DNA of 64,000 nt, taken from assembly GCA_963663165.1 (NCBI GenBank), contig OY760175.1, positions 4,000,001-4,064,000 on the forward strand, given 5' to 3'. The position numbers and the translations under genes were made by a program. Each line of letters opens with the position of its first letter. The first letter of the stretch is position 1. Below, piece after piece: positions 2,494-19,393 of this stretch. The stretch comes from an uncultured Desulfospira sp. (GTDB lineage: Bacteria; Desulfobacterota; Desulfobacteria; Desulfobacterales; Desulfobacteraceae). The notes beneath the pieces were generated by a model. That model was not told the origin of the DNA. It saw only the letters and a list, made by a program, of their open reading frames with translations, and searched no databases.

Positions 2494-2742
2494 ATGCCGG
2501 AAATTACGAGATTTTACGGGATTATTATCAAACTCTTCTTTGGGGATCATCCTCCACCACATTTTCACGCTGTGTATGGTGAATACCTCGCACTTTTCGA
2601 TATTAACTCTTTAAACGTGATTGAAGGGGATCTTCCGCCAAGGGCCAGGAAATTAGTTTTGGAATGGGCTGAAAAATATCAGGCTGAATTAAAGACGATC
2701 TGGGAAACTCAAAAATTTAAAAAATTACCACCTTTGGAGTGA
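2494..2742 (+). CDS. DUF4160 family protein (toxin-like partner of a DUF4160/DUF2442 pair)
   Basis: MPEITRFYGIII...DHPPPHFHAVYGEY...GDLP...LVLEWA...W signature, 82 aa. Confidence 0.9.
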   Translation: MPEITRFYGIIIKLFFGDHPPPHFHAVYGEYLALFDINSLNVIEGDLPPRARKLVLEWAEKYQAELKTIWETQKFKKLPPLE

Positions 2743-2750
2743 TTTGAAAA

Positions 2751-3011
2751 ATGACTGTACCTAAAATAAAAACTGCGGTCGTGGCCGATCAACATACTCT
2801 CGTTATTACATTTGTTAATGGAGAGGTCAAAAAATACAATATCAGCAGGCTGTTAACTAATGAAATGTTCTCACCTCTTAAAAACCAGGCATTTTTCAGA
2901 AACGTTAAAGTGGAGCCAGGCGGATATGCTGTATATTGGGATGATATGATTGATATTAGTGAATATGAATTATGGAAAAACGGAATTTCGGAAAACCCTT
3001 CAAACGCCTAA
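2751..3011 (+). CDS. DUF2442 family protein (putative antitoxin)
   Basis: LVITFVNGEVK...F.PLK...FF..V.V..GGYAVYW.D.IDI...LW pattern; directly downstream of DUF4160. Confidence 0.88.
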   Translation: MTVPKIKTAVVADQHTLVITFVNGEVKKYNISRLLTNEMFSPLKNQAFFRNVKVEPGGYAVYWDDMIDISEYELWKNGISENPSNA

Positions 3012-3332: not shown

Positions 3333-3914
3333 ATGGTGAAAAAAAAATTAAAAGAAATAACATCTGTGCAAATGGGGTACTCGTTCAGGTCCCGTCTCGA
3401 AGCCTCTGAGGGCGGCCAAGTTGCAGTTATTCAGATGAAGGATCTTCTGGATGACAACACGGTCGGCTGTGATGGTTTGGTCAGAATCAATATGGAAGCC
3501 ATGAAAGACCACCACCTTGCGCAAAGAGGTGATCTGGTATTCAGGTCTCGTGGATCTCTAACTACGGCAGCGGTTCTTCTTGAAGATCCGGGCAAGGCTG
3601 TTGTCGCCGCTCCTTTGTTAAGGATAAGGGTAACGAGGAAGGATTTGGTTTTACCCGAATATCTGAACTGGTACATCAGCCAGCGGGATGCGCAAATTTT
3701 TTTGACCAGCCGTGCCAAGGGGACGGTTCAAAAAATGATCAGTAAGCAGGCCATTGAAGATTTGGAAGTGGCGCTGCCAAGTCTGGAAAAACAGAAAAAC
3801 ATCTTAGAGCTGGCCATGCTTATCGCGAGGGAAAAAGCCCTGCTTCATACGATGGCCGATAAGCGGGAACAATACATTTCAACAATACTGATGCAGTTTG
3901 CAAAAGGGGAATAA
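3333..3914 (+). CDS. hsdS: Short single-TRD type I RM specificity subunit (half HsdS)
   Basis: 193 aa with one TRD-like region (GDLVFRSRG, PEYLNWYI, GTVQKMI, LPSLEKQ) and one coiled-coil helix; first gene of the hsdM operon. Confidence 0.82.
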   Translation: MVKKKLKEITSVQMGYSFRSRLEASEGGQVAVIQMKDLLDDNTVGCDGLVRINMEAMKDHHLAQRGDLVFRSRGSLTTAAVLLEDPGKAVVAAPLLRIRVTRKDLVLPEYLNWYISQRDAQIFLTSRAKGTVQKMISKQAIEDLEVALPSLEKQKNILELAMLIAREKALLHTMADKREQYISTILMQFAKGE

Positions 3915-3917
3915 AAC

Positions 3918-5495
3918 ATGAGCAGCCAAATTGACCAAAAAGATATCAACAACGCGGCATGGGCGGCGTGTGACACCTTCCGGGGCGTTGTTGATCCGGC
4001 GCAGTACAAAGACTACATTCTCGTGATGCTGTTTTTGAAATACATCTCTGATGTCTGGCAGGACCATTACGAAGCGTATCAGGCGCAGTATGGCCATGAC
4101 GATGTTCGTATCCGCCGCAAGCTTGAGCGTGAACGTTTTGTTCTCCCGCAGGTGTTACTCACTGAAAAGAATGACGAAACAGGTGAAGAGACTGTTCTGG
4201 ATGAATTTCCCGCCACCTATTACAGCTTGTATGAGCGCCGGTCTGCCGCCAACATCGGTGAGTTGATTAATATTGTACTCGACCATATTGAAGAGAGCAA
4301 CAAGAGCAAGCTCGAAGGGGTGTTCCGTAATATCGACTTCAACAGCGAAGCCAACCTCGGCAAAACCAAGGATAGGAATCGTCGTCTGAAACAACTGCTT
4401 GAGGATTTCCATAAGCCACAGCTCAACATGAAGCCCAGCCTCGTTTCCGAGGATGTCATCGGTAATACCTACATCTACCTGATTGAGCGCTTCGCCTCCG
4501 ACTCCGGAAAGAAGGCAGGAGAGTTCTTTACCCCGCTGAAGGTGACCGAACTGGTGGCCAAGCTGGCAGGTCCCAAACCGGGCGATCGTATCTGTGACCC
4601 GGCCTGCGGATCAGGCGGACTTTTGATTCAGGCTGCTAAACAGGTAGACGGCCGAGATTTTGCCCTCTTCGGACAAGAATCTAACGGGAGCACATGGGCG
4701 CTCTGTCGCATGAACATGTTCCTGCACAGTTTTGACAGCGCCCGGGTTGAGTGGTGCGACACCCTGAACAGTCCGCTGCTGGTGGAAAATGACCGGCTCA
4801 TGAAATTCGACTGCGTGGTGGCCAATCCGCCGTTCTCACTGGATAAGTGGGGGGCCGAAAATGCCGATAGCGACCAGTACAACCGTTTCTGGCGCGGGGT
4901 GCCGCCAAAGAGCAAAGGCGACTGGGCCTTTATCAGCCACATGGTGGAAACCGCCCTTGAAAAGCAGGGCCGGGTTGCCGTGGTGGTACCCCATGGCGTG
5001 CTGTTCCGGGGCGCAGCCGAAGGCCGTATCCGCCGGAAAATGATCGAAGAAAACCTGCTGGATGCGGTCATTGGATTGCCGGGCAATCTGTTCCCGACCA
5101 CCAATATTCCGGTGGCTATATTAGTTTTTCACCGCTCCCGTGAAAAAGGCGGAGCCCGTGAAGAGTGCAAAAACGTCCTCTTTGTGGATGCCAGCCGTGA
5201 GTTTGTCTCCGGCAAAAACCAGAACAGCCTCTCAGATGCGCATATCGGCAAGATCCTGGAGACCTGCGCCAACCGGGTCGAGGTGGAAAAATACGCCCAT
5301 GTGGCCGAGTTTGCCGAGATTAAGGAAAACGACTTCAACCTCAATATCCCCCGCTATGTGGATACCTTTGAAGAGGAAGAGGAGATCGATATCGATGCGG
5401 TGCAGGTGGAAATTGAGGCCATCGAAAAAGAATTGGCTGAAGTCAGGGTACAGATGGCGGAAAAACTTCAGCAAATCAACCGAGGGAATGTATAA
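3918..5495 (+). CDS. hsdM: Type I RM methyltransferase subunit M
   Basis: GEFFTP, DPACGSGG (SAM binding), ANPPF (catalytic motif IV), PHGVLFRG, NLNIPRYV. Confidence 0.97.
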   Translation: MSSQIDQKDINNAAWAACDTFRGVVDPAQYKDYILVMLFLKYISDVWQDHYEAYQAQYGHDDVRIRRKLERERFVLPQVLLTEKNDETGEETVLDEFPATYYSLYERRSAANIGELINIVLDHIEESNKSKLEGVFRNIDFNSEANLGKTKDRNRRLKQLLEDFHKPQLNMKPSLVSEDVIGNTYIYLIERFASDSGKKAGEFFTPLKVTELVAKLAGPKPGDRICDPACGSGGLLIQAAKQVDGRDFALFGQESNGSTWALCRMNMFLHSFDSARVEWCDTLNSPLLVENDRLMKFDCVVANPPFSLDKWGAENADSDQYNRFWRGVPPKSKGDWAFISHMVETALEKQGRVAVVVPHGVLFRGAAEGRIRRKMIEENLLDAVIGLPGNLFPTTNIPVAILVFHRSREKGGAREECKNVLFVDASREFVSGKNQNSLSDAHIGKILETCANRVEVEKYAHVAEFAEIKENDFNLNIPRYVDTFEEEEEIDIDAVQVEIEAIEKELAEVRVQMAEKLQQINRGNV

Positions 5496-6355
5496 TGGAT
5501 CACAAGACAATTACTAAACTGATAAGTTCATTCGACACCCTTGTACACGAAATTCCAGAAGAATCCATCGAGTTTTGGTATGCCAGAGAGATCATGACAG
5601 TTCTCGGGTACGACCGATGGGAAAATTTCAGCAAGGTCATCCACAAAGCGTCCATTGCCTGTGAGACCGCAGGTGGCGTGGCTGCCAACCATTTTCGTGG
5701 CGTCACGAAAATGGTCCCTATCGGTTCCGGGGCAGAAAGACCTGTTGAAGATATCATGCTTACCCGTTATGCCTGTTATCTTATCGCCCAAAACGGTGAT
5801 CCCCGAAAAGAAGCCATCGCTTTTGCCCAGACCTATTTTGCCCTGCAAACCCGCAAGCAGGAACTCATTGAAGAGCGTCTTCGTTTGCAGGAGCGCCTCC
5901 AGGCCCGGCAAAAGCTGACTGAATCGGAAACGGAACTTTCCAGAAACATATACGAACGCGGAGTGGATGAGCGTGGCTTTGGCCGTATCCGTTCCAAAGG
6001 TGATGCGGCTTTGTTTGGTGGCAATACCACGGCAGGAATGAAGGAAAAATTGGGAATGCCTCCCGGCAGACCGCTGGCAGATTTTCTGCCAACAGTAACC
6101 ATCGCCGCCAAGAACCTTGCCGCAGAAATTACCAATTTCAATGTGCGTGAACATGATATGCAGGGGGAGTCCGCCATAACCGGTGAACACGTTCAGAATA
6201 ATACCAGCGTCCGCAATATGCTGGGTGAGCGTGGTATTAAACCGGAAGAGCTGCCGCCGGAAGAGGATATTAAAAAGCTGGAGCGGCGGGTGAAGTCGGC
6301 TGAGAAAAAGTTGATTAGGGGGTGTGAGTTGCCACAGAAGGGGGATGAGGTATAA
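5495..6355 (+). CDS. dinD: DNA damage-inducible protein D-like
   Basis: EFWYARE..LGY.RWENF, LTRYACYLIAQNGDPRKE.IAFAQTYFA.QTR, IRSKGD.ALFGG, LADFLPT motifs. Confidence 0.9.
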   Translation: MDHKTITKLISSFDTLVHEIPEESIEFWYAREIMTVLGYDRWENFSKVIHKASIACETAGGVAANHFRGVTKMVPIGSGAERPVEDIMLTRYACYLIAQNGDPRKEAIAFAQTYFALQTRKQELIEERLRLQERLQARQKLTESETELSRNIYERGVDERGFGRIRSKGDAALFGGNTTAGMKEKLGMPPGRPLADFLPTVTIAAKNLAAEITNFNVREHDMQGESAITGEHVQNNTSVRNMLGERGIKPEELPPEEDIKKLERRVKSAEKKLIRGCELPQKGDEV

Positions 6356-6444
6356 GTGATGAATGATGAATTAAAGAAAAACTCAACATTGAGCAGTTAT
6401 AACTTGCCTCTCGGCCAATCTGCATGGCTCAAGGAGATTCAGCG

Positions 6445-7728
6445 ATGATGCAACTGCGCGATATCCCAGCAGGATGGAAGTACTTAAAACTTAAAAAGTT
6501 ATTAACTCAAGATATTAAGAATGGATATTCGCCAAATTGTCCTGAGGAGCCTAATGGTAGTTGGATTTTAAGCTTAAGAAATCTAACCGGAAATGGCTTT
6601 GATCCTTCTCAGGCAAAACCGGCGCCTAAGGGCGATGTCAGAGTGAAAGATTTTTTGTTAGAGTCTGGCGATTTTTTAATAAGTCGATCCAATACGCTTG
6701 ATAAAGTCGGAAGGACAATGCTGTTTAAAGGTGAAATTGAAAATTGTTCCTATCCGGACTTGCTTATGAAATTTCGTGTCGATGAGACTCAAGTCATAAA
6801 TGAATATTTGGAAGGATATTTAAGAAGTTCAATAGTTCGGAGATACCTCCAAGGCCGCGCCTCTGGTACAAGCCATAGTATGGTGAAAATCAATAAAACA
6901 GTGGTCGGAAAAATACCTGTCATTTTGCCTTCTCATCCAGAACAAAAAGCCATTGCCGATCTGCTGTCCACCTGGGATGAGGCCATCGAGAAAACCGAGC
7001 GGCTGATTCAGGCGAAGGAAAAGCAATTAAGACAGATGTCGAGATGGTTGCTTTTTGGTCACAAAAGATTGGGGAATCAAAATAATGAGTTGGCTGATGC
7101 TCACTTTTTCAAATACCCGTCTGATTGGACATTGGTCAAAATTGAAAAAATTGCAAAGGAAGTCTCCGTACGTAATGATGAGTCCGACGAGACTGTGCTG
7201 TCATGCTCAAAATATGATGGGTTTGTCAATTCACTGGACTACTTCGGAAAACAAGTCTTCAGTAGCGATACATCCAATTACAAAATCGTTAAAAAAGGAC
7301 AGTTCGGCTATCCCTCAAATCATGTCGAAGAGGGTTCAATAGGTCTTCTTAAACACTGTGAAAAAGGCATTGTCAGTCCAATCTACGTTGTGTTTGAAGC
7401 TTCAAAAGAGAAGGTGCATTCACCGTTTTTGTACAAGCTGCTTAAAACAGACATTTATCGGCACATTTTCCAAGTCAGCACGAGCTCATCGGTTGACCGT
7501 CGTGGCAGTCTCCGCTGGGGTGACTTTTCTAAAATTAAGGTGCTGGTTCCGTCGCTTGAGGAACAACAGGAAATCTCGGAGAATCTGGCTTCAGCCCAGC
7601 ACGAAATCGACCTGCTGAAACAGCTCGCAGAAAAATACAAAACCCAAAAACGCGGTCTGATGCAGAAGATGCTCACCGGCGAATGGCGGGTAAAACCGGA
7701 AATCGTTAACCAATACATGGAGGCGTAA
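6445..7728 (+). CDS. hsdS: Type I RM specificity subunit S (two TRDs)
   Basis: Two TRDs, each followed by a conserved helix (LPSHPEQKAIADLLSTWD; PSLEEQQEI...KRGLMQKMLTG). Start placed at the ATG after RBS AAGGAG. Confidence 0.93.
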   Translation: MMQLRDIPAGWKYLKLKKLLTQDIKNGYSPNCPEEPNGSWILSLRNLTGNGFDPSQAKPAPKGDVRVKDFLLESGDFLISRSNTLDKVGRTMLFKGEIENCSYPDLLMKFRVDETQVINEYLEGYLRSSIVRRYLQGRASGTSHSMVKINKTVVGKIPVILPSHPEQKAIADLLSTWDEAIEKTERLIQAKEKQLRQMSRWLLFGHKRLGNQNNELADAHFFKYPSDWTLVKIEKIAKEVSVRNDESDETVLSCSKYDGFVNSLDYFGKQVFSSDTSNYKIVKKGQFGYPSNHVEEGSIGLLKHCEKGIVSPIYVVFEASKEKVHSPFLYKLLKTDIYRHIFQVSTSSSVDRRGSLRWGDFSKIKVLVPSLEEQQEISENLASAQHEIDLLKQLAEKYKTQKRGLMQKMLTGEWRVKPEIVNQYMEA

Positions 7729-7730
7729 TC

Positions 7731-7964
7731 ATGGCTAAAGGTAAAAATCAACACGTTGTAAAGCATCCCGATGGCTGGGCGGTAAAGGGTGAGGGGAACA
7801 GCAAAGCGACCAAGGTGACCCGCACTCAGGCGCAGGCCATTGAAAAGGCAGAGAACATTGCCAGAAACCAGAAATCGGACACCAAAATTCATGGCGTGAA
7901 CGGAAAGATTCGGGCTGGCAACAGCTATGGAAACGACTCGTGTCCTCCTAAAGATAAAAAGTAA
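7731..7964 (+). CDS. DUF2188 family small protein
   Basis: KNQHVV.HPDGWAVKGEG..KAT....TQ..AI..A..IA.NQ....IHG.NGKIR..NSYGND..PP signature. Confidence 0.88.
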   Translation: MAKGKNQHVVKHPDGWAVKGEGNSKATKVTRTQAQAIEKAENIARNQKSDTKIHGVNGKIRAGNSYGNDSCPPKDKK

Positions 7965-8243
7965 GGAGTGATTCAATGCCAATATTTATATCGCATACAA
8001 CCAGAGACGATGAATTAGCCAAAAAGGTGTTTTGGCGGTTTAACCGCATTCACAATATTACCTGTTATATCGATGATATGGATAAGGAGCTTGGAAATAA
8101 TCGGGGAAAATCGAGCCTCACTCCGTTACTGGTCGATAGGTTGCGTAAATGCGACACATTGCTTGCTGTTGTCACAGAACATACAAAAGGATCATGGTGG
8201 GTGCCTTTTGAAATAGGCACTGCACGAGAAATGCCCCGGGTTA

Positions 8244-9623
8244 GGGCCTCAGAAAAATTAATATCCACAATTCCATAGTCTGAATTCTGATTTCTATAGA
8301 CAACATGGAATCGATAGTTTATGGTCAACATGGAAGATTACATAAAAAATACAGGAGGACCATGTTTGATCATTCTAAGCACAATTTACCCAAAACTATA
8401 TCGGAATTAACGCCACCACTAAAGGATTTTCTGAATACCACTCGAAGCAAATTAAAAGGCCATGAACGGCGCCAATTCATGGCACGCGTTGTCTCCCTTA
8501 TGGGGCACGGCGGACAACTAAAGGCTGAAAGAGAACTGGGTTGGGATCGGAAAACAATAATCAAAGGGCGACGGGAAATAGAAAGCGGAGTTACCTGTGT
8601 TGATAATTTTTCCGGACGAGGCCGGAAATCGTGTTTAGAACATTTTCCGAATTTAAAAGAGGACATAACTCGTATTGTAAACCCTATATGTCAGACTGAT
8701 CCTACATTCCGTACCCAGAATTTATATTCCCCAATATCTGCGAATGAAGTATTCCGTCGATTAGTTGACGACATGGGATATGACCCTGAGAATATGCCAA
8801 CAGTACGGACTCTATCCACCATAATGAATAAATTGGGTTTTAAACTGAAGAAGGTCGCCAAAGCCAAGGTAAAAAAAAATTCCTGAAACAGACATCATTT
8901 TTGAATATGTGCATAGGACAAACCAACTAGCCGATGAAACAGATGGCGTTTTACGTATCTCAATGGACGCAAAAGCCACTATTAAAATAGGGCCTTATTC
9001 CCGAGGCGGATATAGTCGTTGCAATCTTAAAGCGGCGGACCATGATTTTAAACCCGATTCCCTTTTGAAACTTTTCGGTATCAACATACCTGCTCTGGAT
9101 GAAAATTATATGTACTTCACTGAAAGCAACATCACCTCTGATTTCATGATTGATGCGCTGGAATCACTCTGGCCTTCTTTGAACGCAAGATTCGCCCCAC
9201 ATACACTGGTGATCAATCTTGATAATGGGCCGGAAAATAGTAGCCGAAGGAGCCAATTCATTAGTCGCCTCGTGGACTTTGCCAAATCAGCATTTGTAAA
9301 TATTAGTTTGGTGTACTATCCCCCGTACCACAGTAAATACAACCCAATAGAGCGAGTTTGGGGTGTTTTGGAAAATCATTGGAAAGGCGAATTGCTGAAC
9401 AAAATTGAAAAGGTTCTCGGTCTATGTCGAACAATGACATGGAAAGGAGAAAATCCTGTCGTCAAATTAATCAAAGGTGTTTACCCGACAGGGGTACGTT
9501 TGGTCAAGTCCGCCGTGAATAATATAGAAAACAAAATTATTCGGATTCCAGGGATTGAAAAATGGGCTGTTGATATTCCATGCTATGAGGAATGAATTGT
9601 GGGTTTTAATTTTACCACATCCC
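8244..9623 (+). mobile_element. ISAzo13-family-like insertion sequence, 1380 bp
   Basis: Imperfect terminal inverted repeats (GGGCCTCAGAAAAATTAATATCCACAATTC vs reverse complement GGGATGTGGTAAAATTAAAACCCACAATTC); 3-bp TTA duplication at 8241-8243 and 9624-9626; transposase in two frames. Confidence 0.88.
8362..9595 (+). CDS. ISAzo13-family transposase, split into 8362-8886 and a second frame ending 9595 at an A9 run (8871-8879)
   Basis: AERELGWDRKTI, QTDPTFRT in frame 1; KKIPETD, RISMDAKA, DNGPENSSRR, YYPPYHSKYNPIERVWG in frame 2; RBS AGGAGG before 8362. Confidence 0.85.
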
Positions 9624-9879
9624 TTATATCGAGCTTTACACCTCTGCCGGATCGATCCTCTTATAGCTGGCAAGAGACCTTGCCGGAATACCTTCTTGAG
9701 TGGCCTCGGCTGCGCTCTGATAGCGATATAGATGTTTTTGCAAGAGAGTACAAAAAACAGTCTCTGCTGCTGGAAAAAAGCATTGGGCTTGAGAACTTCT
9801 CGCAAAGATCGGCTTCGGTGAATAATGCCCGGAACTTTGAATCTACCGTAATGAAATCATTGGGTCAGAGGAGTTATTG

Positions 9880-10500
9880 ATGAGTCTTTACAATTTTTAC
9901 AACACCAATGTAACTCCCAAGCACAAGACGTTTATCAGTTTTCATCATTCAGATGATTACTACAAAAAGCATCTTGAAACCCAATGGGGTCAGCAGTTTG
10001 ATGGATTTGTTTCAAGGTCAGTAGGTGATGGCGATATTAACCCATATTTATCCACAGACCGCATCCGTCAGTTGATTCGTGATGATTTCATTTCTGATGC
10101 CACCGTTACACTTGTGCTTGTCGGACAGGGAACATGGCGCAGAAAGCATGTGGATTGGGAAATAGCTTCGGGCATTCATGACACGAAGAATAATTCAAGA
10201 ACTGGCCTATTGGGCTTGCTGCTCCCGACCTATTCGGCCCAGTTGCCATATGGAATGAAGGCATCGGCTTTGAAGTATACGGAAAATGGCAGCGTCTATA
10301 ACCCATATACAATTCCTCCAAGGTTGAACGACAACGTTGAATGCGGATTCGCCAAAATATATGCCTGGCCGACCTCTTCAAATGATTTGCGTGAATGGAT
10401 TCATGATGCATTTCAGCGACGCAAAACATGTTTACCAACAAACGGTCGAGACAGTTTTTCAAATAATAAAACTGAAGCTCAAACGCACTGGAGGGACTGA
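9880..10500 (+). CDS. TIR-domain protein, Thoeris ThsB-like (TIR-2)
   Basis: KHKTFISFHH, IRDDFISDATVTLVLVG..T..RKHVDWEI (catalytic Glu), GLLGLLLP, IPPRL; ATG overlaps the upstream stop (TGATG). Confidence 0.9.
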   Translation: MSLYNFYNTNVTPKHKTFISFHHSDDYYKKHLETQWGQQFDGFVSRSVGDGDINPYLSTDRIRQLIRDDFISDATVTLVLVGQGTWRRKHVDWEIASGIHDTKNNSRTGLLGLLLPTYSAQLPYGMKASALKYTENGSVYNPYTIPPRLNDNVECGFAKIYAWPTSSNDLREWIHDAFQRRKTCLPTNGRDSFSNNKTEAQTHWRD

Positions 10501-10502
10501 CA

Positions 10503-11054
10503 ATGATATCAAGTACAAATAGAAGGAAGGTTTTTATTTCACATTATAAAGGGGACCGGAATGAGGTTGATGCTTTTATAAAGGATTACTCATCCGTTTT
10601 TATCCCCAAGGTGTTGGGTGCCAATGATAATGATGAATTTATCAACAGCACGAACACCGACTATGTCATGCAGCGCATAAGGGAAAAATACCTTGGTGAC
10701 AGTACCGTGACGATTGTTTTAATAGGAAGGTGTACACATAGTCGACGATATGTTGACTGGGAGATAAAGAGTTCTCTGCGACAGGGCCAATACACACCTA
10801 ATGGCCTAATGGGAATAGTTTTGCCAAGTTGTAAGAATACAGCTTATTTACCACGAAGATTGGAAGCAAACTGGAATAGTGAGCATCATAGTTGCTATTC
10901 AAGATACTGGTCTTATCCCTCTTCTGCTCAACAATTGGCAAACTGGATTGAAGATGCATATCAGGCCCGAACTTCCCGGGCGCATCTGATCCAGAACTCT
11001 CAGGATATGATGAAGTACAATGGCGTGTGTAAAATCTGCGGGGTGACACATTGA
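10503..11054 (+). CDS. TIR-domain protein, Thoeris ThsB-like (TIR-3)
   Basis: RRKVFISHY, IREKYLGDSTVTIVLIG..T.SRRYVDWEI (catalytic Glu), NGLMGIVLP, LPRRL; C-terminal CKICGVTH. Confidence 0.9.
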   Translation: MISSTNRRKVFISHYKGDRNEVDAFIKDYSSVFIPKVLGANDNDEFINSTNTDYVMQRIREKYLGDSTVTIVLIGRCTHSRRYVDWEIKSSLRQGQYTPNGLMGIVLPSCKNTAYLPRRLEANWNSEHHSCYSRYWSYPSSAQQLANWIEDAYQARTSRAHLIQNSQDMMKYNGVCKICGVTH

Positions 11055-13123
11055 TGACAGCAGAATACAAACCACCCTTAGCCATACACTTTATTTGGAA
11101 CCCTGCAGATGAAGAACCTGTAAGTAAGATACTTGATGCTGTCAGGTCCAATTTTGCGCGTGATGTAGACCGGCCGTTTTCTCGTGGCTTAAACATACCG
11201 CTATTTTTCTATAGCTCAGAAAACCCGAATCAGCCCCCGTCACACTCACCTGCACAGCAGGCTGCAAAAGATATTGTATTCGTGTTCGCAAGCGTAAATA
11301 CACTAGGGCGGGACTCATGGAAATCATACATTAATCAACTGTCACTATCGGACACATTTCTGGCGGTTCCAATAGCCATTGATAGAAACGGATTAGGTCA
11401 TGGCAGTGAAGGCAGTCTCAAAAATCTGAATTTCCTTAGGTCTTACGAATGGTCGGGAGATTTAAAAGAGCAGCGGGCTATACTGGCCATGGCTCATGAA
11501 ATATACAGATACGGTTTCGTCGAAATTTGTGAAAATGATCATGGCAAGTGTTCATCAATTAAGATTTTTTTAAGCCATGCAAAAGCTGGAGATACTGGCC
11601 GCCTCCACGCTGAATCAATCTATAAATTCATCGATAGTACCAATATTTCGCGTTTTTTTGATGCGACCGAAATATCGCCGGGCTTCAAATTTGATGAAGA
11701 AATTATTAAGCACATAAAAGAATCCACATTGGTAGCGATAGGAAGTGACGCCTATTCCTCAAGATATTGGTGTCAGAGAGAAATCCTATGTGCTAAACAG
11801 CATCAGCGGCCTATCATCGCAGTTGATTGTCTTCAAGATTTTGAAGACAGGGTGTTTCCTGCAGGATCTAATGTCCCATGTGTGCATGTTTCACCGGACA
11901 CTCCAATTAGTGAGCCTGATATATTGCGTATCCTAATTGCTACCATTCTTGAAACGATACGTCACCTGCATGCGAAAAAATCACTCGAATATTATCAAAG
12001 CCAGGGTTGGATTAATAATGACTGTGCCATCATCTCAAGGCCACCCGAAATCCGTCAGGTGATCGATCTGAAAAATAGTGGGAAACAAAAAATTTGTTAC
12101 CCTGAACCTACGCTCTACTCCGAGGAAGCAGACTGGCTTTCGTATTTTGAAGTGGATGCGTTTACGCCCTTGTGGAACAAGGCTGAAGATGGGGCTTTGG
12201 GTAGTTTCAGAATAGGCATTTCCATCTCTGATAATCCTGTCGGTTATTATTCAGATCACCATTTACATGCTGACCATCTAAAGAGGCTATCCCAAGATCT
12301 GGCAAGGCACCTTCTTGCAAGGACAGGAACAATTATTTATGGAGGAGATCTTCGCAAAGACGGGTTTACACAATTTATTCTCGACGAGGCGATTGCATTA
12401 AAGACCCGTCTCAATACCGATAGCATTCATGTTGAGAATCATCTGGCTTGGCCTCTGTATGTATCAGATTCAGGAATGGTTGCCTGGAGAGCCAGGTACA
12501 ATGGAATTATTAAAACTGTTGAGCATGATATTCCAGATGATATTGCAGAAGGCATCGATAAGGGTGTCTTCATAGCTCCCAGTGGAACGGCTAATAAATA
12601 CATCTGGTCTCGTTGCCTTACATGGATGCGAGAGAAATCTATTGAGCTTTCTCATGCGCGTATATGCGCAGGTGGCAAACTTGCGGGCTATCACGGAAAA
12701 ATTCCGGGAGTTCTTGAAGAGATCATCATTTCAATAGAAAAAAACAAACCAATCTTTTTGCTCGGTGCTTTCGGTGGTGTTGTTGCCGAAGTTTGTAAAA
12801 CAATCACAGACAAGGCTATTGCTGAACCGATAACCGAACACTGGCAGATTACAAATAACGCCGGGTATTTTGAGCTTCAGGAAAAAGCCAAACAAGGAAA
12901 TAAGGATGCTGACTATACGAGAATTAAGACTGTTTTAGAAGGCATATCAGTGGATGATTTGGCACGTTCTTCCGGCCTTAGTTCAGACGATTATCGGCGA
13001 TTAATGGAATCCCCTTTTGTAGATGAGTGCGTGCATCTTGTTTTAAAAGGACTAAAGACATTAGCTTCTGCCAGCATGAGTAAAAAAACGGAGGGGCATG
13101 ATGAGGAACTTTCAGATAAATGA
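11054..13123 (+). CDS. Multidomain protein: degenerate TIR-like N-terminus + TIR + SLOG (putative effector of a Thoeris-like system)
   Basis: TIR from about aa 170 (KIFLSHAK, FFDATEI.PG, SDAYSSRYWCQREI with Glu at about aa 243). SLOG from about aa 386 (IGISIS, IIYGGDLR, ARICAGGK, PGVLEE, KPIFLLGAFGG). TGATG-coupled to TIR-3. Confidence 0.82.
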   Translation: MTAEYKPPLAIHFIWNPADEEPVSKILDAVRSNFARDVDRPFSRGLNIPLFFYSSENPNQPPSHSPAQQAAKDIVFVFASVNTLGRDSWKSYINQLSLSDTFLAVPIAIDRNGLGHGSEGSLKNLNFLRSYEWSGDLKEQRAILAMAHEIYRYGFVEICENDHGKCSSIKIFLSHAKAGDTGRLHAESIYKFIDSTNISRFFDATEISPGFKFDEEIIKHIKESTLVAIGSDAYSSRYWCQREILCAKQHQRPIIAVDCLQDFEDRVFPAGSNVPCVHVSPDTPISEPDILRILIATILETIRHLHAKKSLEYYQSQGWINNDCAIISRPPEIRQVIDLKNSGKQKICYPEPTLYSEEADWLSYFEVDAFTPLWNKAEDGALGSFRIGISISDNPVGYYSDHHLHADHLKRLSQDLARHLLARTGTIIYGGDLRKDGFTQFILDEAIALKTRLNTDSIHVENHLAWPLYVSDSGMVAWRARYNGIIKTVEHDIPDDIAEGIDKGVFIAPSGTANKYIWSRCLTWMREKSIELSHARICAGGKLAGYHGKIPGVLEEIIISIEKNKPIFLLGAFGGVVAEVCKTITDKAIAEPITEHWQITNNAGYFELQEKAKQGNKDADYTRIKTVLEGISVDDLARSSGLSSDDYRRLMESPFVDECVHLVLKGLKTLASASMSKKTEGHDEELSDK

Positions 13124-13271
13124 AAAGCATCTTTCTCAAATCCCGGCTTTGCAGCTTTTGATTGGCTTGGGATTTGAATTTTTGACACCTGCAGAAGCTC
13201 TCCGCGAAAGACAGGATCGGACCTTCAATGTTTTATTGAAGAACATTCTGCCCAATCAGCTTAAGGAGTAA
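13098..13271 (+). pseudogene. Duplicated 5' fragment of hsdR (57-codon ORF)
   Basis: Encodes MMRNFQINEKHLSQIPALQLLIGLGFEFLTPAEALRERQDRTFNVLLKNILPNQLKE*, near-identical to the HsdR N-terminus at 14016 (MNTFQINEKYLSQIPALQLLIGLGFEFLTPAEALRERQNRTSNVLLENILRNQLKE). Confidence 0.9.
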
Positions 13272-13275
13272 ACAA

Positions 13276-14019
13276 ATGAACAAATACCAGAAGCTTGACG
13301 ACTTGAAACAGAAACTTGATTCCTTCTGTCCACTGCCGCCAGAGATTGTTTCGAACCTTCATAAGGATCTGGTGCTTCGCTGGACCTATCACTCAAACGC
13401 TATCGAAGGAAATAGGCTGACGCTGAAAGAAACCAAGGTGGCGCTGGAAGGGATCACCGTTGGCGGGAAAACCATACGGGAGCACTTTGAAGCGATCAAC
13501 CACAGGGAAGCCATTTTTTTAGTTGAAGATCTGGTCAAAAAAAATGAGCCCCTGTCTGAGTGGCAGATTAAATCGATTCACCAATTGATCCTGAAAAATA
13601 TTGATGACAAAAATGCGGGTGTTTATAGAAAAACGAATGTCATCATCTCGGGTGCCGATCATGTTCCGACCGATGCCCTGCATGTAGAAAGCGACATGCA
13701 AAGCTTTATTAACTGGTATCAAACCCAAGGGGCGTCTCTCCATCCGGTAGAGCGGGCGGCCCGTGTTCATTCTGATTTTGTGAAAATCCATCCTTTTGTG
13801 GACGGCAATGGCAGAACATCACGGTTGCTGATGAATCTGGAACTGATGAAAAGCGGGTTCCCAGCGGTTGTTCTGCCTGTGGAAAAGCGCTTGGAATATT
13901 ACGAGACTCTGGATACCGCCCACACAAAAAATGATTATGAGCCATTTTTGACGCTGATTGCAAATATAACGGTATTAGGATTCAAACCCTACTGGCATGC
14001 CTTAGGGGTAACACCATGA
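13276..14019 (+). CDS. Fic-domain protein (class II-like, autoinhibited)
   Basis: Canonical HPFVDGNGRTSR motif; N-terminal SNAIEGN inhibitory motif. Confidence 0.92.
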   Translation: MNKYQKLDDLKQKLDSFCPLPPEIVSNLHKDLVLRWTYHSNAIEGNRLTLKETKVALEGITVGGKTIREHFEAINHREAIFLVEDLVKKNEPLSEWQIKSIHQLILKNIDDKNAGVYRKTNVIISGADHVPTDALHVESDMQSFINWYQTQGASLHPVERAARVHSDFVKIHPFVDGNGRTSRLLMNLELMKSGFPAVVLPVEKRLEYYETLDTAHTKNDYEPFLTLIANITVLGFKPYWHALGVTP

Positions 14020-17000
14020 ACACCTTTCAGATCAATGAAAAGTATCTTTCTCAAATCCCGGCCTTGCAGCTTTTGATTGGCCTGGGGTTTGAATTTTTGA
14101 CACCGGCTGAAGCCCTGCGCGAAAGGCAGAATCGAACATCCAATGTCTTGTTGGAAAATATTCTGCGCAATCAGCTCAAAGAGATAAACCGCATTCGATA
14201 TAAAGGCGGTGAGTATCTCTTCAGCGAGGAGAATGTCCAGTCGGCTATCCAGAAGCTCAAAAACATAAAATATGATGGCTTGCTCAAGACCAACGAGGCC
14301 ATTTACGATCTGATCACTCTCGGAACAGCCATGGAGCAGACCATTGAGGGGGATTCGAAAAGCTTCAATATGAACTATATCGACTGGCCCAAATCCAGGA
14401 ACAGCCCCGGTCGCAACAAGTTTCATGTAACGGTCGAATACAGTGTTGAACGTTCACGGGGACACAGTCCCGTTTTTATGTCAGGCCGTTCACCTTCGTA
14501 TGACGCGTATAAAGCAGGACAAAGCTATTCAGAGAAAAACACCACTGGTGGTGCGGAAACCGCCCGTCCGGATATCGTTCTCTTCGTTAATGGTATTCCA
14601 TTTTGCGTGATTGAGTGTAAAGCCCCGCAGATTGAAGTTGCACAGGCCGTTTCTCAGTCCATCAGAAATCAGAATGATGACTATATCCCAAAGCTCTTCA
14701 TCTACAGCCAGATGGTGCTGGCTCTGAATAAAAACAGCGCTATGTACGCAACAACGGGTACCGCTGCAAAGTTCTGGGGTGTATGGAAAGAGCCTTTGAT
14801 GGATAACGGCGAGCGTGAGTTTGAAAAACTGGCAGCAGTGGTCAACCAACCACTTGCCAAGCCTGTTGCCGCCAAAATTTTTTCTACCTTTGATGTTCAG
14901 CCGGAAGCTTTCACCGGCAACAGGCTGGTGACCGAACAGGATAAGGCTTTGTTCTCCCTTTGCCGTCCGGAAAGGCTCTTGGAATTGGCATGGAAGTTTA
15001 CGGTATTTGACGGGGGGATCAAAAAGATTGCCCGCTATCAACAGTATTTTGTCATCAAGTCTACCCTGAATCGGGTAAAGCACTTTGATAGGGCAGGTTC
15101 GCGTAAAGGCGGTGTGATCTGGCACACGCAAGGGTCAGGAAAGTCACTGACCATGGTGATGCTGGCCCGTAACCTGGCCTTGGATCCCGAAATTTTGAAT
15201 CCGAGAATTGTTCTTGTGACTGACCGTGACGACCTCGATAAGCAGCTTGGGAATACCTTTGCCGCCTGTGGCCTTGGCGCCAACCGGGCAACATCAGGCA
15301 GAAACCTGCTGGAACTGGTCGCTGAAAAGAAGTCAGGAATTATCACAACCCTCATTCACAAATTCGACAAAGCTTACGCGGTAAAAAAATATCAGGATGA
15401 ATCCCCTGATATTTTCATTCTGGTGGATGAGAGCCACCGGTCCCAGTTCGGTTCCTTTTCCGCCCGGATGAGGCAGATGTTTCCCCATGCCTGTTATCTG
15501 GGATTTACCGGCACGCCGCTGTTAAAGAAAGAGAAGAACAACTTCACCAAATTTGGTGAACTGGTGGAGCCCCATTATTCCATCACACAGGCCGTTGAAG
15601 ATGGCGCGGTGGTTCCGCTTCTGTATGAGGGGCGGCATGTGGAGATGACACAAAACACAGAAGCAGTTGATCTGTGGTTTGAGCGGCACACGCAGGGGTT
15701 GACCAGGGATCAGCAGGCAGACCTGAAACGCAAATATGCCCGGGCAGAAATGCTGAACAAGGCCGATCAGGTCATATATATGAGAGCGTTTGACATCAGC
15801 GAGCACTTCCGCGGGAGCTGGCAGGGAACAGGATTCAAGGCCCAGCTGGTGGCCCCGAATAAAGCATCGGCGCTCAAGTACAATGCGTATATGAATGAAA
15901 TCGGCATTGTCAGTTCCCAGGTTGTTATCTCGCCGCCGGATATGCGTGAAGGATATGAAGAGACCGATGATGAAACAACGGATGAGGTTGTAAAATTCTG
16001 GCAAAAAATGATGAAGCGCTATGGCAGTGAAGAAGAATACGTAAAGCAGCTCATCAACCAGTTTAAACACGGAAGCGTTCCTGAAATCCTTATTGTCGTT
16101 GATAAGCTGCTCACGGGTTTTGACGCTCCGCGCAACGCAGTCCTCTATCTATGCAGGGTACTGAGGGAGCACACGCTGCTTCAGGCAATTGCCCGGGTCA
16201 ACCGTCTCCATGAGGACAAGGAGTTCGGCTTTATCGTAGACTATGCAAGCGTCCTCGGTGAACTGGACAAAGCGCTTACCATGTACAGCGCATTTGAAGG
16301 GTTTGATGAATCCGATCTGGTCGGCACTCTGACATCCATTAACAGCGAAATCGAAAAACTGCCCGGCAGGTATTCCGATCTTTGGGATCTATTCAAAACG
16401 GTTAAGCATTCATACGATGAAGAAGCTTATGAAGTGCTGCTTGCCGATGAGAACTTAAGAGAAGAGTTTTACGGCCGTCTGTCGGAGTTCGGAAAAACCC
16501 TTGGCATCGCACTCTCTTCCGAGAATTTCCTGACCAAAACAGATGAGAAGGCTTTATTCAGATACAAGGCAGATCTTCGGAAATTCCAGTCACTCAAAGC
16601 ATCTGTCAAAATCCGGTATGCAGAGGCTATTGACTACCGGGATTATGAGCCAAAAATCAAAAAGTTGCTGGATACACACATTCAAGCCAGCGAAGTTGTT
16701 CAGCTGAATAAGCCGGTCAATATTTTTGATGATGAAGCATTCATGGTGGTGAAAGAAGAACAAGCGGTCTATGGCAGCAAAAAAACAACGGCGTCAAAGG
16801 CTGATACGATTGCACATGCCACGAAGAAAGTCATCACCGAAAAGATGGATGAAGACCCTGCGTTCTACGAAAAATTCTCAAAACTGATCCAGAAGGCAAT
16901 TGAAGATTTCAGGGCTAAGAGGATATCCGATCTGGATTATCTGAATAAAGTCGTGGAGATCCGCAACAAGGTTGTTGGTAAGGTACATGAAGATATACCG

Positions 17001-17333
17001 GATAAGCTTTCCGGGAATGAAGATGCCATGGCCTATTTCGGGGTACTTAAGCCTTTCCTTGAAGCCTATTCTAAGCAAACCGGCGAATTAGGTGAAGAAG
17101 ACCTTGAATCAGCAGCGGCTGATACGGCAATTGCTATTCATGGAATATTGGAAAAACATAAGAAAGTTCACTTCTGGGATGATGAAGACACTCAGAAACA
17201 GGCAGTAAATGAGATTGACGACTATCTCTATGATGAGCTCAAGACGGAAAGGGGGATTGAGCTGTCGCTTGATCAGATGGATGACATCATTGAGAAAGCC
17301 CTGCAGGTGGCAAAGCACAGGAGTTATAAATAA
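14016..17333 (+). CDS. hsdR: Type I RM restriction subunit R
   Basis: RPDIVLFVNGIP..VIECK nuclease motif, WHTQGSGKS (Walker A), DESHR, GFTGTP, KLLTGFDAP, QAIARVNR. Confidence 0.96.
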   Translation: MNTFQINEKYLSQIPALQLLIGLGFEFLTPAEALRERQNRTSNVLLENILRNQLKEINRIRYKGGEYLFSEENVQSAIQKLKNIKYDGLLKTNEAIYDLITLGTAMEQTIEGDSKSFNMNYIDWPKSRNSPGRNKFHVTVEYSVERSRGHSPVFMSGRSPSYDAYKAGQSYSEKNTTGGAETARPDIVLFVNGIPFCVIECKAPQIEVAQAVSQSIRNQNDDYIPKLFIYSQMVLALNKNSAMYATTGTAAKFWGVWKEPLMDNGEREFEKLAAVVNQPLAKPVAAKIFSTFDVQPEAFTGNRLVTEQDKALFSLCRPERLLELAWKFTVFDGGIKKIARYQQYFVIKSTLNRVKHFDRAGSRKGGVIWHTQGSGKSLTMVMLARNLALDPEILNPRIVLVTDRDDLDKQLGNTFAACGLGANRATSGRNLLELVAEKKSGIITTLIHKFDKAYAVKKYQDESPDIFILVDESHRSQFGSFSARMRQMFPHACYLGFTGTPLLKKEKNNFTKFGELVEPHYSITQAVEDGAVVPLLYEGRHVEMTQNTEAVDLWFERHTQGLTRDQQADLKRKYARAEMLNKADQVIYMRAFDISEHFRGSWQGTGFKAQLVAPNKASALKYNAYMNEIGIVSSQVVISPPDMREGYEETDDETTDEVVKFWQKMMKRYGSEEEYVKQLINQFKHGSVPEILIVVDKLLTGFDAPRNAVLYLCRVLREHTLLQAIARVNRLHEDKEFGFIVDYASVLGELDKALTMYSAFEGFDESDLVGTLTSINSEIEKLPGRYSDLWDLFKTVKHSYDEEAYEVLLADENLREEFYGRLSEFGKTLGIALSSENFLTKTDEKALFRYKADLRKFQSLKASVKIRYAEAIDYRDYEPKIKKLLDTHIQASEVVQLNKPVNIFDDEAFMVVKEEQAVYGSKKTTASKADTIAHATKKVITEKMDEDPAFYEKFSKLIQKAIEDFRAKRISDLDYLNKVVEIRNKVVGKVHEDIPDKLSGNEDAMAYFGVLKPFLEAYSKQTGELGEEDLESAAADTAIAIHGILEKHKKVHFWDDEDTQKQAVNEIDDYLYDELKTERGIELSLDQMDDIIEKALQVAKHRSYK

Positions 17334-18058
17334 TGGAGGCATTAATTCATAGCAATAAACACTCGGTTGTTTACGGCCGGAAGACCATCGATTTCAGTCT
17401 TTTGTACTGTGACAGAAAAACGATGGAAATTGCTGTGCATCCTGACAGCACGGTGATTGTCAAAGCGCCCGTGCAATCCGATATCACATTGATAGAACAG
17501 AAAATCATAAAGCGGGCTCGTTGGATTTTCAGACAGCTGAATTATTTCAAGCAGTTTACTCCAAAGACGCCTGATCGATGTTACGTGAACGGCGAGACCC
17601 ACTTGTACCTTGGGAAGCAATTCCGATTGAAATTAGCCAAGGGACAGGAAAACTCAGTAAAATTGTCTCGCGGCTTTTTTCATGTTAATTGCCGGAGCGA
17701 GCCGACTCCAAATTCTGCCAAGATGTTATTAAACCAATGGTATTCGGAAAAAGCACAACTTCAGTTTGCCCAGAGTATGGACCGCTGCTGGCAGAAATTC
17801 AATGGTTTCGGTATTGGTCAGCCAAAACTATCCATTAAGCGAATGCAAAAAAGATGGGGCAGCCTTTCAGACAAGGGCACAGTGACCCTCAATACTGACC
17901 TGGTTAAAGCACCTAAAGAGTGTATCGATTATGTTGTTACCCACGAACTGTGCCACCTGAAATATCATGATCACAGCCCGGATTTTTATAAGCTCTTAGA
18001 CTCTGTCATCCCGGGTTGGGAGAAGATAAAACACAAACTTGAGGTAAGCATGTCATAA
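17333..18058 (+). CDS. M48-like zinc-dependent protein, YgjP/DUF45 family
   Basis: GETHLYLG, KRWGS, IDYVVTHELCHL..HDHS..F; usual gene downstream of hsdR. Confidence 0.88.
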   Translation: MEALIHSNKHSVVYGRKTIDFSLLYCDRKTMEIAVHPDSTVIVKAPVQSDITLIEQKIIKRARWIFRQLNYFKQFTPKTPDRCYVNGETHLYLGKQFRLKLAKGQENSVKLSRGFFHVNCRSEPTPNSAKMLLNQWYSEKAQLQFAQSMDRCWQKFNGFGIGQPKLSIKRMQKRWGSLSDKGTVTLNTDLVKAPKECIDYVVTHELCHLKYHDHSPDFYKLLDSVIPGWEKIKHKLEVSMS

Positions 18059-18467: not shown

Positions 18468-18677
18468 CCTATAACCGCAAATGACAGTTGGATTTTTTCA
18501 ACCAACTGATTTTTAATTCAATTAATACAACTTGTTTCAATTTGCAAAGTATATGTTTTAGTCGTTGAATCGAAAAACTCTAAGATTCTGGGCGAAATGG
18601 ATTATTTTTCCTGTTATTGCTTCGTAGTATATGATATTATTTGGCACAAATATCATATACTACGAAGAGAGGTTGTC

Positions 18678-19343
18678 ATGCCTATTATCGACGTTCAAAA
18701 AATTGAATCGGCCAGATCAACGCTTAAAAAACAAAAAATTTTTACCCTCAAAAAGCTTGTTTCAATTCTGGATTGTTCCTCCAGAACTGCCCAAACAAAA
18801 CTTAAACAGTGGAAGACCTACACAAGTTACAATCAAAACGGGAAGTATTATACTTTGCCTGAAATCCCTCAATTTGACGTTTATGGTATATGGCAATTTA
18901 AAAATGCCGCGTTCTCTAAGTATGGTAATCTAAAAAAAACCATTATCCATTTAGTGAACTCCTCATCTGAAGGGCTTACCGGCAGACAACTTGGTGAACT
19001 TCTTGGGTTATCACCACAATCCTTTGTGCATCATTTCCGTAGTTGTCCGGGTATCTGTCGAGAAAAGCACGCTGGTGTCTATGTCTACTTCTCTGACAAC
19101 ATTTCAATATTTAAAAATCAAGTAAAACAAAGGAGTTCCCTTGTCCTCCGTCAAGCGGCTATTTCCATTTCTGACCAGGAAGCAGTCATGATTCTGGTTG
19201 CTATTATCAGGCATCATGGCATATCCGCAGAAGACATTTTGGGCTTGCCGGAGATCAAAAAGAGCAAACTAAAGCCGGCTAATATCCAAGGATTTATGGA
19301 GTCTCATGAGTTGTTAAAAAAAATTCCGGATTCCAAGCATTAA
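18678..19343 (+). CDS. IS OrfA, putative DNA-binding (HTH-like) protein, 221 aa
   Basis: Lies inside the TIRs; basic, HTH-like segments (GLTGRQLGELLGLS); RBS GAGAGG; ends just after an A8 run. Confidence 0.65.
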   Translation: MPIIDVQKIESARSTLKKQKIFTLKKLVSILDCSSRTAQTKLKQWKTYTSYNQNGKYYTLPEIPQFDVYGIWQFKNAAFSKYGNLKKTIIHLVNSSSEGLTGRQLGELLGLSPQSFVHHFRSCPGICREKHAGVYVYFSDNISIFKNQVKQRSSLVLRQAAISISDQEAVMILVAIIRHHGISAEDILGLPEIKKSKLKPANIQGFMESHELLKKIPDSKH

Positions 19344-19393
19344 AACTGCTCAAAAGCTTTATCTCCAAGCTGACTGGGTCCGTCCAAACTAGT

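Follow-up and report, generated by a model that had tools for sequence, protein, structure and literature searches.

A Thoeris-like cassette with a fused TIR–SLOG protein in a type I restriction–modification operon of an uncultured Desulfospira sp.

Here, we describe a putative Thoeris-like defense cassette in an uncultured Desulfospira sp. (assembly GCA_963663165.1, completeness 96.7%), located at positions 7731-13123 of a 64,000-nt window (contig OY760175.1, positions 4,000,001-4,064,000 of the forward strand; all coordinates below are window coordinates, and the genes of the cassette and of its carrier operon read forward). The cassette comprises a DUF2188 gene, three stand-alone TIR genes resembling ThsB, and a gene for a 689-amino acid (aa) protein in which a TIR-like domain, a catalytic-type TIR, a small α/β domain and a SLOG domain follow one another in one chain. 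It is best explained as a type III-like Thoeris system with its two core parts fused. Judged from sequence and predicted structure, this fused SLOG cluster2 variant of the type III blueprint is real, well conserved and mobile. As for its mode of action, we give about an even chance to a mechanism in which an ADP-ribose (ADPR)-derived signal made by the ThsB-like TIRs binds the SLOG domain and activates the fused TIR, which would then drain nicotinamide adenine dinucleotide (NAD+).

Domain architecture of the 689-aa protein

The 689-aa protein (11054-13123) has Pfam matches to TIR_2 (residues 171-259) and LD_cluster2 (residues 382-648), and its predicted structure (pLDDT 85.5, pTM 0.89) is confident across four domains. 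The original prediction, made from the DNA letters alone, had read it as a degenerate TIR-like N-terminus, an intact TIR with its glutamate in a WCQREI motif and a SLOG domain at the C-terminus, an arrangement that fold and profile evidence bear out. Conservation was assessed in an alignment of 128 rows, consisting of the query and those 127 of 150 family representatives that are 620-730 aa long.

Domain 2 (residues 166-305; 11549-11968) is a catalytic-type TIR carrying Glu243. Its residues 167-300 match the TIR domains of MyD88 and SARM1 (Z 12.4-12.6), and E243, F172, S174, D203 and W239 are invariant in all 128 rows. Its ratio of non-synonymous to synonymous substitution rates (dN/dS) is 0.037 relative to L001, a related locus. 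Domain 4 (residues 382-680; 12197-13093) scores 203.5 bits against LD_cluster2 (PF18163; cut-off 25.3), which places it in SLOG cluster2. The best fold match of residues 383-672 is the SLOG domain of BcThsA (7UXS_A; Z 15.7, root-mean-square deviation (rmsd) 2.9, 184 residues aligned), the effector of type I Thoeris. Here, S390, G431, R526, G552 and E556 are invariant (128/128), and position 542 is lysine or arginine in 85% of the rows. In a weak local profile match, R526, K542 and E556 align with R371, K388 and E403 of ThsA. We take K388 to be a pocket residue of ThsA; R371 and E403 are described as such in PMC7272460. The resulting map of the pocket is tentative, because the profile match between this SLOG domain and the STALD-type SLOG is weak.

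Domain 1 (residues 1-165; 11054-11548) is a likely pseudo-TIR by fold and profile comparison. When it is folded alone, 6 of its top 11 fold matches are TIR domains, with 4C6T_B the best (Z 10.1, rmsd 3.4, 134 residues aligned), a match only narrowly above those to vWA, receiver and other flavodoxin-like folds; Foldseek gave no match at E <= 0.001. The profile of domain 1 aligns with the TIR of the same protein over 133 columns, placing W89 on W239 (0 of 25 shuffles scored as high), and a hydrophobic residue takes the position equivalent to Glu243. Domain 3 (residues 306-381; 11969-12196) is a small α/β domain with near-invariant PPE, YP(D/E)P, E358 and TP. It has no convincing family or look-alike (best atlas match 0.78, uninformative), and its profile matches neither the other domains of the protein nor STALD or ThcB4, a type III Thoeris protein. 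Compared with the sequences of solved structures, the profile of the whole family returned only a plant TIR (E 0.069).

Stand-alone TIR genes and the insertion sequence in TIR-1

Upstream of the large gene, the stand-alone TIR genes form a tightly coupled run, with the TGATG overlaps at 9878-9882 and 11052-11056 located as first described. TIR-2 (9880-10500, 206 aa; PF08937, 60.9 bits) and TIR-3 (10503-11054, 183 aa; PF08937, 59.5 bits) belong to the ThsB_TIR family, and TIR-1 is a ThsB-like protein of the TIR_2 type by Pfam and PADLOC. The three represent separate subfamilies with less than 40% identity to each other, each retaining the glutamate (in WVPFEIG, HVDWEI and YVDWEI, respectively), so that the cassette holds ThsB-type TIRs with a catalytic glutamate as type I Thoeris does. 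The DWE motif is conserved across the 32 sequences of the TIR-2 subfamily. TIR-3, with its glutamate at position 87, aligns over the catalytic helix with ThsB of Bacillus cereus (6LHY; E 0.005), and in the neighborhood survey described below its subfamily usually lies immediately 5′ of the large gene. In 24 aligned members of this subfamily, C131, C176, C179 and H183 are invariant, a set that could possibly form a zinc site, which would be unusual for ThsB. A genome scan placed all three ThsB_TIR matches and the sole LD_cluster2 match inside the cassette. Pairwise dN/dS relative to L001 is 0.02-0.16 over all cassette genes, and because all of them are thus under purifying selection, the cassette is not a chance arrangement.

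The positions of the open reading frames and the four glutamate motifs agree with the original prediction, which had also counted three stand-alone TIR genes. All three do carry the motif, but TIR-1 (5′ part at 7976-8243, 3′ part at 9624-9880) is broken after codon 89 by a 1380-bp ISAzo13-family insertion sequence (IS; 8244-9623, PF07592) with inverted ends and a 3-bp TTA duplication (8241-8243 and 9624-9626), and therefore only two of the genes are intact; the prediction alluded to this break only in mentioning a repaired TIR-1. Compared with the intact gene of L001 (173 aa), the 5′ part is 97% identical to residues 1-89 and the 3′ part 95% identical to the last 83 residues. Among 27 matches to the element in the genome, 16 are full-length, near-identical copies, each with a 3-bp duplication, and because these copies are nearly identical, the break is recent. 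In the contigs of four sequencing runs, possibly including the source sample, no joint skipping the IS was found. The transposase gene of the element is split at a poly-A run (8870-8879) that is 8, 9 or 10 A long among the 16 copies, which may reflect slippage control or sequencing error.

This insertion raises the question of whether the cassette is a decaying passenger in this strain, in which the IS silences the downstream genes and nothing works. The element lies in the first TIR gene and 5′ of TIR-2, TIR-3, the large gene and hsdR, and frameshifted large genes at other loci (L003 and L040-L042) show that decay occurs. TIR-2, TIR-3 and the large gene are nonetheless intact and under purifying selection, the near-identical IS copies speak for a recent event, and decay in one strain would have no bearing on the function of the family. 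We consider this the least probable of the accounts discussed here.

Family, neighborhoods and mobility

With the profile of the 689-aa protein, 715 clusters are retrieved at E <= 1e-30 and, at 1e-10, 1927; both counts take in partial matches. Of the best 150 representatives, 138 have all four domains in a single chain; this set was picked by the full-length profile and is therefore biased. A split form, in which a gene for domain 1, TIR and domain 3 is followed by an adjoining SLOG cluster2 gene, occurs at four loci (L007, L008, L027 and L030) and, with no domain 1 detected, at L012; domain 3 thus remains with the TIR half. Loci L003 and L040-L042 were rejected as true split forms, as they hold frameshifted copies.

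The large gene is present in 92 loci, 72 of which include 1.5 kb of upstream sequence. As the original prediction expected of homologs, a stand-alone TIR gene lies within 3 kb in 68 of these 72 loci (two or more in 37, three or more in 15), and its subfamily changes from locus to locus. Two of the four loci lacking a labelled TIR (L009 and L113) do have other TIR_2 genes nearby. All other neighbors are inconstant: among the 72 loci, Nmad2 accompanies 39, MazG_C 22, hsdR 20 (within 3 kb) and DUF2188 12. Constant across loci are only the pseudo-TIR/TIR/domain 3 part and SLOG cluster2, fused or in adjacent genes.

DUF2188 (7731-7964, 77 aa; Pfam 76.8 bits, PADLOC PDC-S16) has a dN/dS of 0.02 relative to L001 and is found in 13 of the 92 loci, immediately before TIR-1 in all 13. 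It was rejected as a core component on the basis of this count and is an optional passenger. Nor is it as distinctive as the original prediction held, since Yirmiya et al. 2025 (10.64898/2025.12.03.692087) already name DUF2188 beside a TIR as a putative Thoeris effector, as a candidate only; a link of DUF2188 to defense is also made in 10.1101/2022.04.27.489752. The cassette shares the DUF2188–TIR adjacency with that putative type, with the difference that DUF2188 here shares an operon with a SLOG system.

The carrier is a type I restriction–modification (RM) operon, with the cassette placed between its hsdS and hsdR genes; GC content is 43% in the cassette and 50% in the genome. The order hsdS-DUF2188-TIR1-TIR2-TIR3-large gene-hsdR recurs in L001, L003 and L005, whose records are labelled Proteiniphilum, a spirochaete and Loosdrechtia; L004 (Marinicella) has two TIR genes and no DUF2188, and L002 and L006 end at contig edges. 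Because a number of these records come from metagenome bins, any one organism label may be wrong. At the DNA level, the large gene is 84-93% identical in 10 of the 11 loci compared and 75% identical in the other, values similar to those for hsdR. The large gene and cassette were absent from 40 related genomes (0/40), Escherichia coli genomes gave no DNA match, and viral contigs yielded no ThsA relative and one distant relative of the 689-aa protein. The simplest reading of this pattern is a recent cross-phylum transfer of the cassette together with the RM operon.

This association invites an alternative in which the TIR proteins guard the restriction complex in the manner of PrrC, monitoring Hsd subunits and firing upon their inhibition by phage. 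A guard might well be found in such a place: the cassette is flanked by hsdS and hsdR, in relatives it runs into the start of hsdR, and its DNA identity across loci is similar to that of the operon with which it moves. However, hsdR is within 3 kb in just 20 of the 72 loci, and a type I Thoeris (L114) and a type III Thoeris (L123) adjoin hsd genes too, because of which the slot can be regarded as general cargo space. On these grounds we rejected the guard as the leading explanation and deem it highly improbable. The RM nesting, put forward earlier as a distinctive point, is instead clade-specific cargo.

Further variants were seen among the relatives. Distant ones (L053, L058, L067, L072, L109 and others) occur within a cluster of TIR-Nmad2, MazG_C, UDG, thymidylate synthase and HMUDK_hel genes that has no PADLOC match. 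In P0238 (1569 aa) and P0256 (1849 aa), the four-domain module is C-terminal to a ParA-like/TIR/nSTAND1 or long TPR region, both typical of sensors. In L088 (2291-7075), L089 (3274-7879), L090 and L092, two divergent paralogs of the large gene stand in tandem next to an MFS transporter gene, and each of the two has the catalytic glutamate.

Relation to type III Thoeris and other systems

Type III Thoeris, composed of ThcA and ThcB1-4, was reportedly described in Pseudomonas aeruginosa by van den Berg et al. in 2024. It is summarized as several TIR proteins plus a SLOG effector with uncharacterized signaling in 10.64898/2025.12.03.692087, and as acting without abortive infection, hypothetically via a NucS domain, in 10.64898/2026.01.22.701046. 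Our cassette likewise combines several TIR genes with a SLOG domain and lacks SIR2, transmembrane (TM) and caspase effectors, but has one chain rather than two and SLOG cluster2 rather than cluster3, and it falls below both family cut-offs.

The latter was assessed with the NCBIfam models NF058525 (ThcA, cut-off 110) and NF058526 (ThcB4, cut-off 220). Type III genes of two control genomes, G801 and G460, scored 405 bits (ThcB4) and 206 and 249 bits (ThcA), whereas the 689-aa protein had no match to NF058525 at E <= 0.1 (three relatives, 16-23 bits) and 25 bits to NF058526 in the TIR region only (relatives, 33-56 bits). None of 401 genomes of one class, three of them unpublished, exceeded the NF058526 cut-off. 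By these models, then, the protein is not a type III member. Profile–profile comparison (hhalign) points to a deeper connection: residues 69-308 align with ThcB4 54-279 at 97% probability (E 1e-10, 217 columns), spanning the N-terminal domain, the TIR and the E(T/S)LR helix that comes after it. Taken alone, the N-terminal domain gives a weak match to that of ThcB4 (E 0.016), a score reached by 0 of 25 shuffles. This counterpart led us to reject the N-terminal domain as a unique feature, which the original prediction had listed as distinctive. The SLOG domain aligns with ThcA over 177 columns (74%) and with ThsA over 69 columns (13%). The ThcA controls are LD_cluster3 proteins, as opposed to the fused LD_cluster2 found here, and TIR-cluster3 SLOG fusions of ~600 aa also exist. 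Domain 3 has no match to the C-terminal region of ThcB4, and family searches with domain 3 gave no hit corresponding to the reported NucS-like effector domain. In a 51-row TIR tree, the 689-aa family and ThcB4 are separated by a starred branch with no sister relation; a single clade of the two is not rejected by the approximately unbiased test (p-AU 0.216). The suspected link to type III is thus seen in profile homology to both ThcB4 and ThcA, albeit distant and below the family cut-offs, and the cassette probably shares ancestry with type III.

Compared with type I Thoeris (the SIR2-SLOG protein ThsA plus ThsB), the cassette likewise has ThsB_TIR sensors, a BcThsA-like SLOG fold and the R/K/E pocket positions, but no SIR2, a SLOG domain that is not STALD, and a TIR as output domain. 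The absence of SIR2, Macro-TM and caspase effectors, claimed from the start, holds for the 19 proteins scanned with Pfam between 2494 and 21148, none of which belongs to the SIR2, Macro or caspase families, leaving no effector of type II or IV Thoeris among them. No STALD SLOG was found in the genome, while the same model detected one in 2 of 300 other genomes. CBASS TIR-SAVED and TIR-STING, Pycsar TIR and CRISPR Cat1 similarly join a nucleotide receptor to a catalytic TIR, and Cat1 and TIR-STING are among the fold matches of the 689-aa protein; here, however, the upstream enzymes would be TIRs instead of cyclases or Cas10, the receptor is a SLOG domain, and a pseudo-TIR is added. PADLOC 2.0 labels the TIRs as ThsB-like and DUF2188 as PDC-S16, and leaves the large protein unmodelled beyond its TIR.

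The 689-aa protein is a typical member of a large group of PF18163 + PF13676 (SLOG cluster2/TIR_2) proteins that is catalogued as a domain family only. Aravind and colleagues are said to have described such proteins bioinformatically. The literature searched contained no functional study of a SLOG cluster2 fusion, although the preprint 10.64898/2025.12.03.692087 may already list the family as a putative type (Figure 1C and Table S1); the portions consulted of PMC13276650, PMC13243611, PMC13069673, PMC13434031, PMC9503650, 10.1101/2024.10.24.620036 and 10.1101/2025.02.20.638879 give no detail on it. The system is not categorically new, since publications already cover its parts, the blueprint of type III and the candidacy of DUF2188 as an effector.

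Proposed mechanism and alternatives

In the mechanism that we favor, each stand-alone ThsB-like TIR, drawn from three divergent and swappable subfamilies, would sense a phage cue and convert NAD+ to an ADPR-derived signal. The 689-aa protein would take up this signal in the pocket of its SLOG cluster2 domain, and binding would release or assemble its own catalytic TIR, with the pseudo-TIR and domain 3 serving as scaffold or brake. Control would thus run from SLOG to TIR, and the activated TIR would use up NAD+, arresting the infected cell and thereby protecting against phage. A mobile type I RM operon carries the cassette between its hsdS and hsdR genes, and in this strain one of the putative sensors has recently been lost to an IS. 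This mechanism is supported because the catalytic glutamate is invariant in all 128 rows and the pocket residues are conserved and aligned with ThsA, because a stand-alone TIR lies near the large gene in 68 of 72 loci with no other candidate effector constant, and because receptor-fused TIR NADases are established as effectors in CBASS, Pycsar and pAgo systems. Together with this co-occurrence of ThsB-like TIRs, SLOG and TIR, these points uphold the Thoeris-like reading proposed at the outset.

Several points weigh against the mechanism. The SLOG–STALD profile match reaches just 12.9% over 69 columns (0.3% against a single sequence, and no match in global alignment). The surveyed loci include near-duplicates and are not independent, and in 21 of the 72 the sole stand-alone TIR within 3 kb is of the kind linked to Nmad2 and may be part of a different system. 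In this strain, the IS may be polar on the downstream genes. Finally, we found no experiment on the 689-aa family in the literature.

Alternatively, the system might work as a relay or amplifier, with the SLOG-gated TIR either making another ADPR-type signal or adding to the first one, and a neighbor or domain 3 doing the killing or blocking. Candidates for this role are DUF2188 here and Nmad2, MazG_C or others elsewhere. DUF2188, as a named putative effector with a dN/dS of 0.02 that always precedes TIR-1, would fit, as would the TIR-Nmad2, MazG_C and UDG genes adjoining relatives, the near-invariant residues of domain 3, and the above report of type III acting without abortive infection (10.64898/2026.01.22.701046). 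Yet no neighbor is constant, L004 and L007 have no candidate effector beyond the large gene and TIRs, and domain 3 has neither a recognizable nuclease-type motif nor a match to the ThcB4 C-terminus. We regard a relay as unlikely, though it deserves to be kept in mind.

The split forms and the position of TIR-3 suggest yet another arrangement, in which the SLOG domain is a brake that binds or hydrolyzes what the TIRs produce and keeps the fused TIR inactive until infection, or contact between ThsB and the pseudo-TIR, relieves it. SLOG relatives include LOG-type nucleotide hydrolases, a separate SLOG gene in the split forms resembles an antitoxin, and TIR-3 is usually encoded immediately 5′ of the large gene; a TIR devoid of its glutamate would suit an adaptor role, and direct TIR–TIR contact would resemble MAL/MyD88 nucleation. 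The closest solved fold, however, is the ThsA receptor bound to 3′cADPR, and three unrelated, interchangeable sensor subfamilies are easier to reconcile with a diffusible signal than with a fixed contact. A SLOG brake therefore seems rather improbable.

Should signal-driven activation of the fused TIR be correct, this would be a Thoeris system with a TIR as effector, in which one TIR relays to another and a pseudo-TIR serves as scaffold. So far, the discovery of a Thoeris type has tended to bring with it a NAD-derived signal particular to that type, and the signal here could be a new ADPR isomer. A natural TIR-SLOG fusion with an invariant glutamate and a mapped pocket would turn the question of type III signaling into a biochemical test on one protein, and provide a single-chain model for type III action. 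The 689-aa family has many members, and RM operons carry it across phyla. Whether it constitutes a separate, widespread Thoeris type, in which a TIR-made signal is read by a cluster2 SLOG domain and activates a second TIR in the same chain, is a putative assignment that we offer tentatively and consider somewhat doubtful.

Carrier operon and flanking genes

The front half of the carrier RM operon (3333-7728; Pfam, PADLOC and NCBIfam) consists of a short, half-size extra hsdS (3333-3914), hsdM (3918-5495), a dinD/PDC-S13 gene (5495-6355, PADLOC) and hsdS (6424-7728). Relatives have KilA-N (PDC-S22) or four-helix-bundle genes in slots near the hsdS and dinD positions. The back half comprises hsdR (14016-17333) and a YgjP/M48 peptidase gene (17333-18058).

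The segment between the cassette and hsdR (13101-14019) carries 56 codons copied from the 5′ end of hsdR; this orphan copy overlaps the stop of the 689-aa gene and, over 166 nt, has 86% identity to 14024-14189. A fic gene (13276-14019; PF02661), missing from the 11 related loci compared, comes next. The orphan copy and fic are evidently a later insertion, and the segment resembles a scar left by recombination between two alleles of the RM operon. Run X4 shows an extra 723-base joint from 13300 back to 13109.

Just 5′ of the RM operon, a DUF4160/DUF2442 gene pair (2494-3011) is likely a toxin–antitoxin. Transposase genes flank the island: a two-gene element with mutator-like Pfam matches (18597-21148) and, on the other flank, a transposase-like open reading frame at 19-714.

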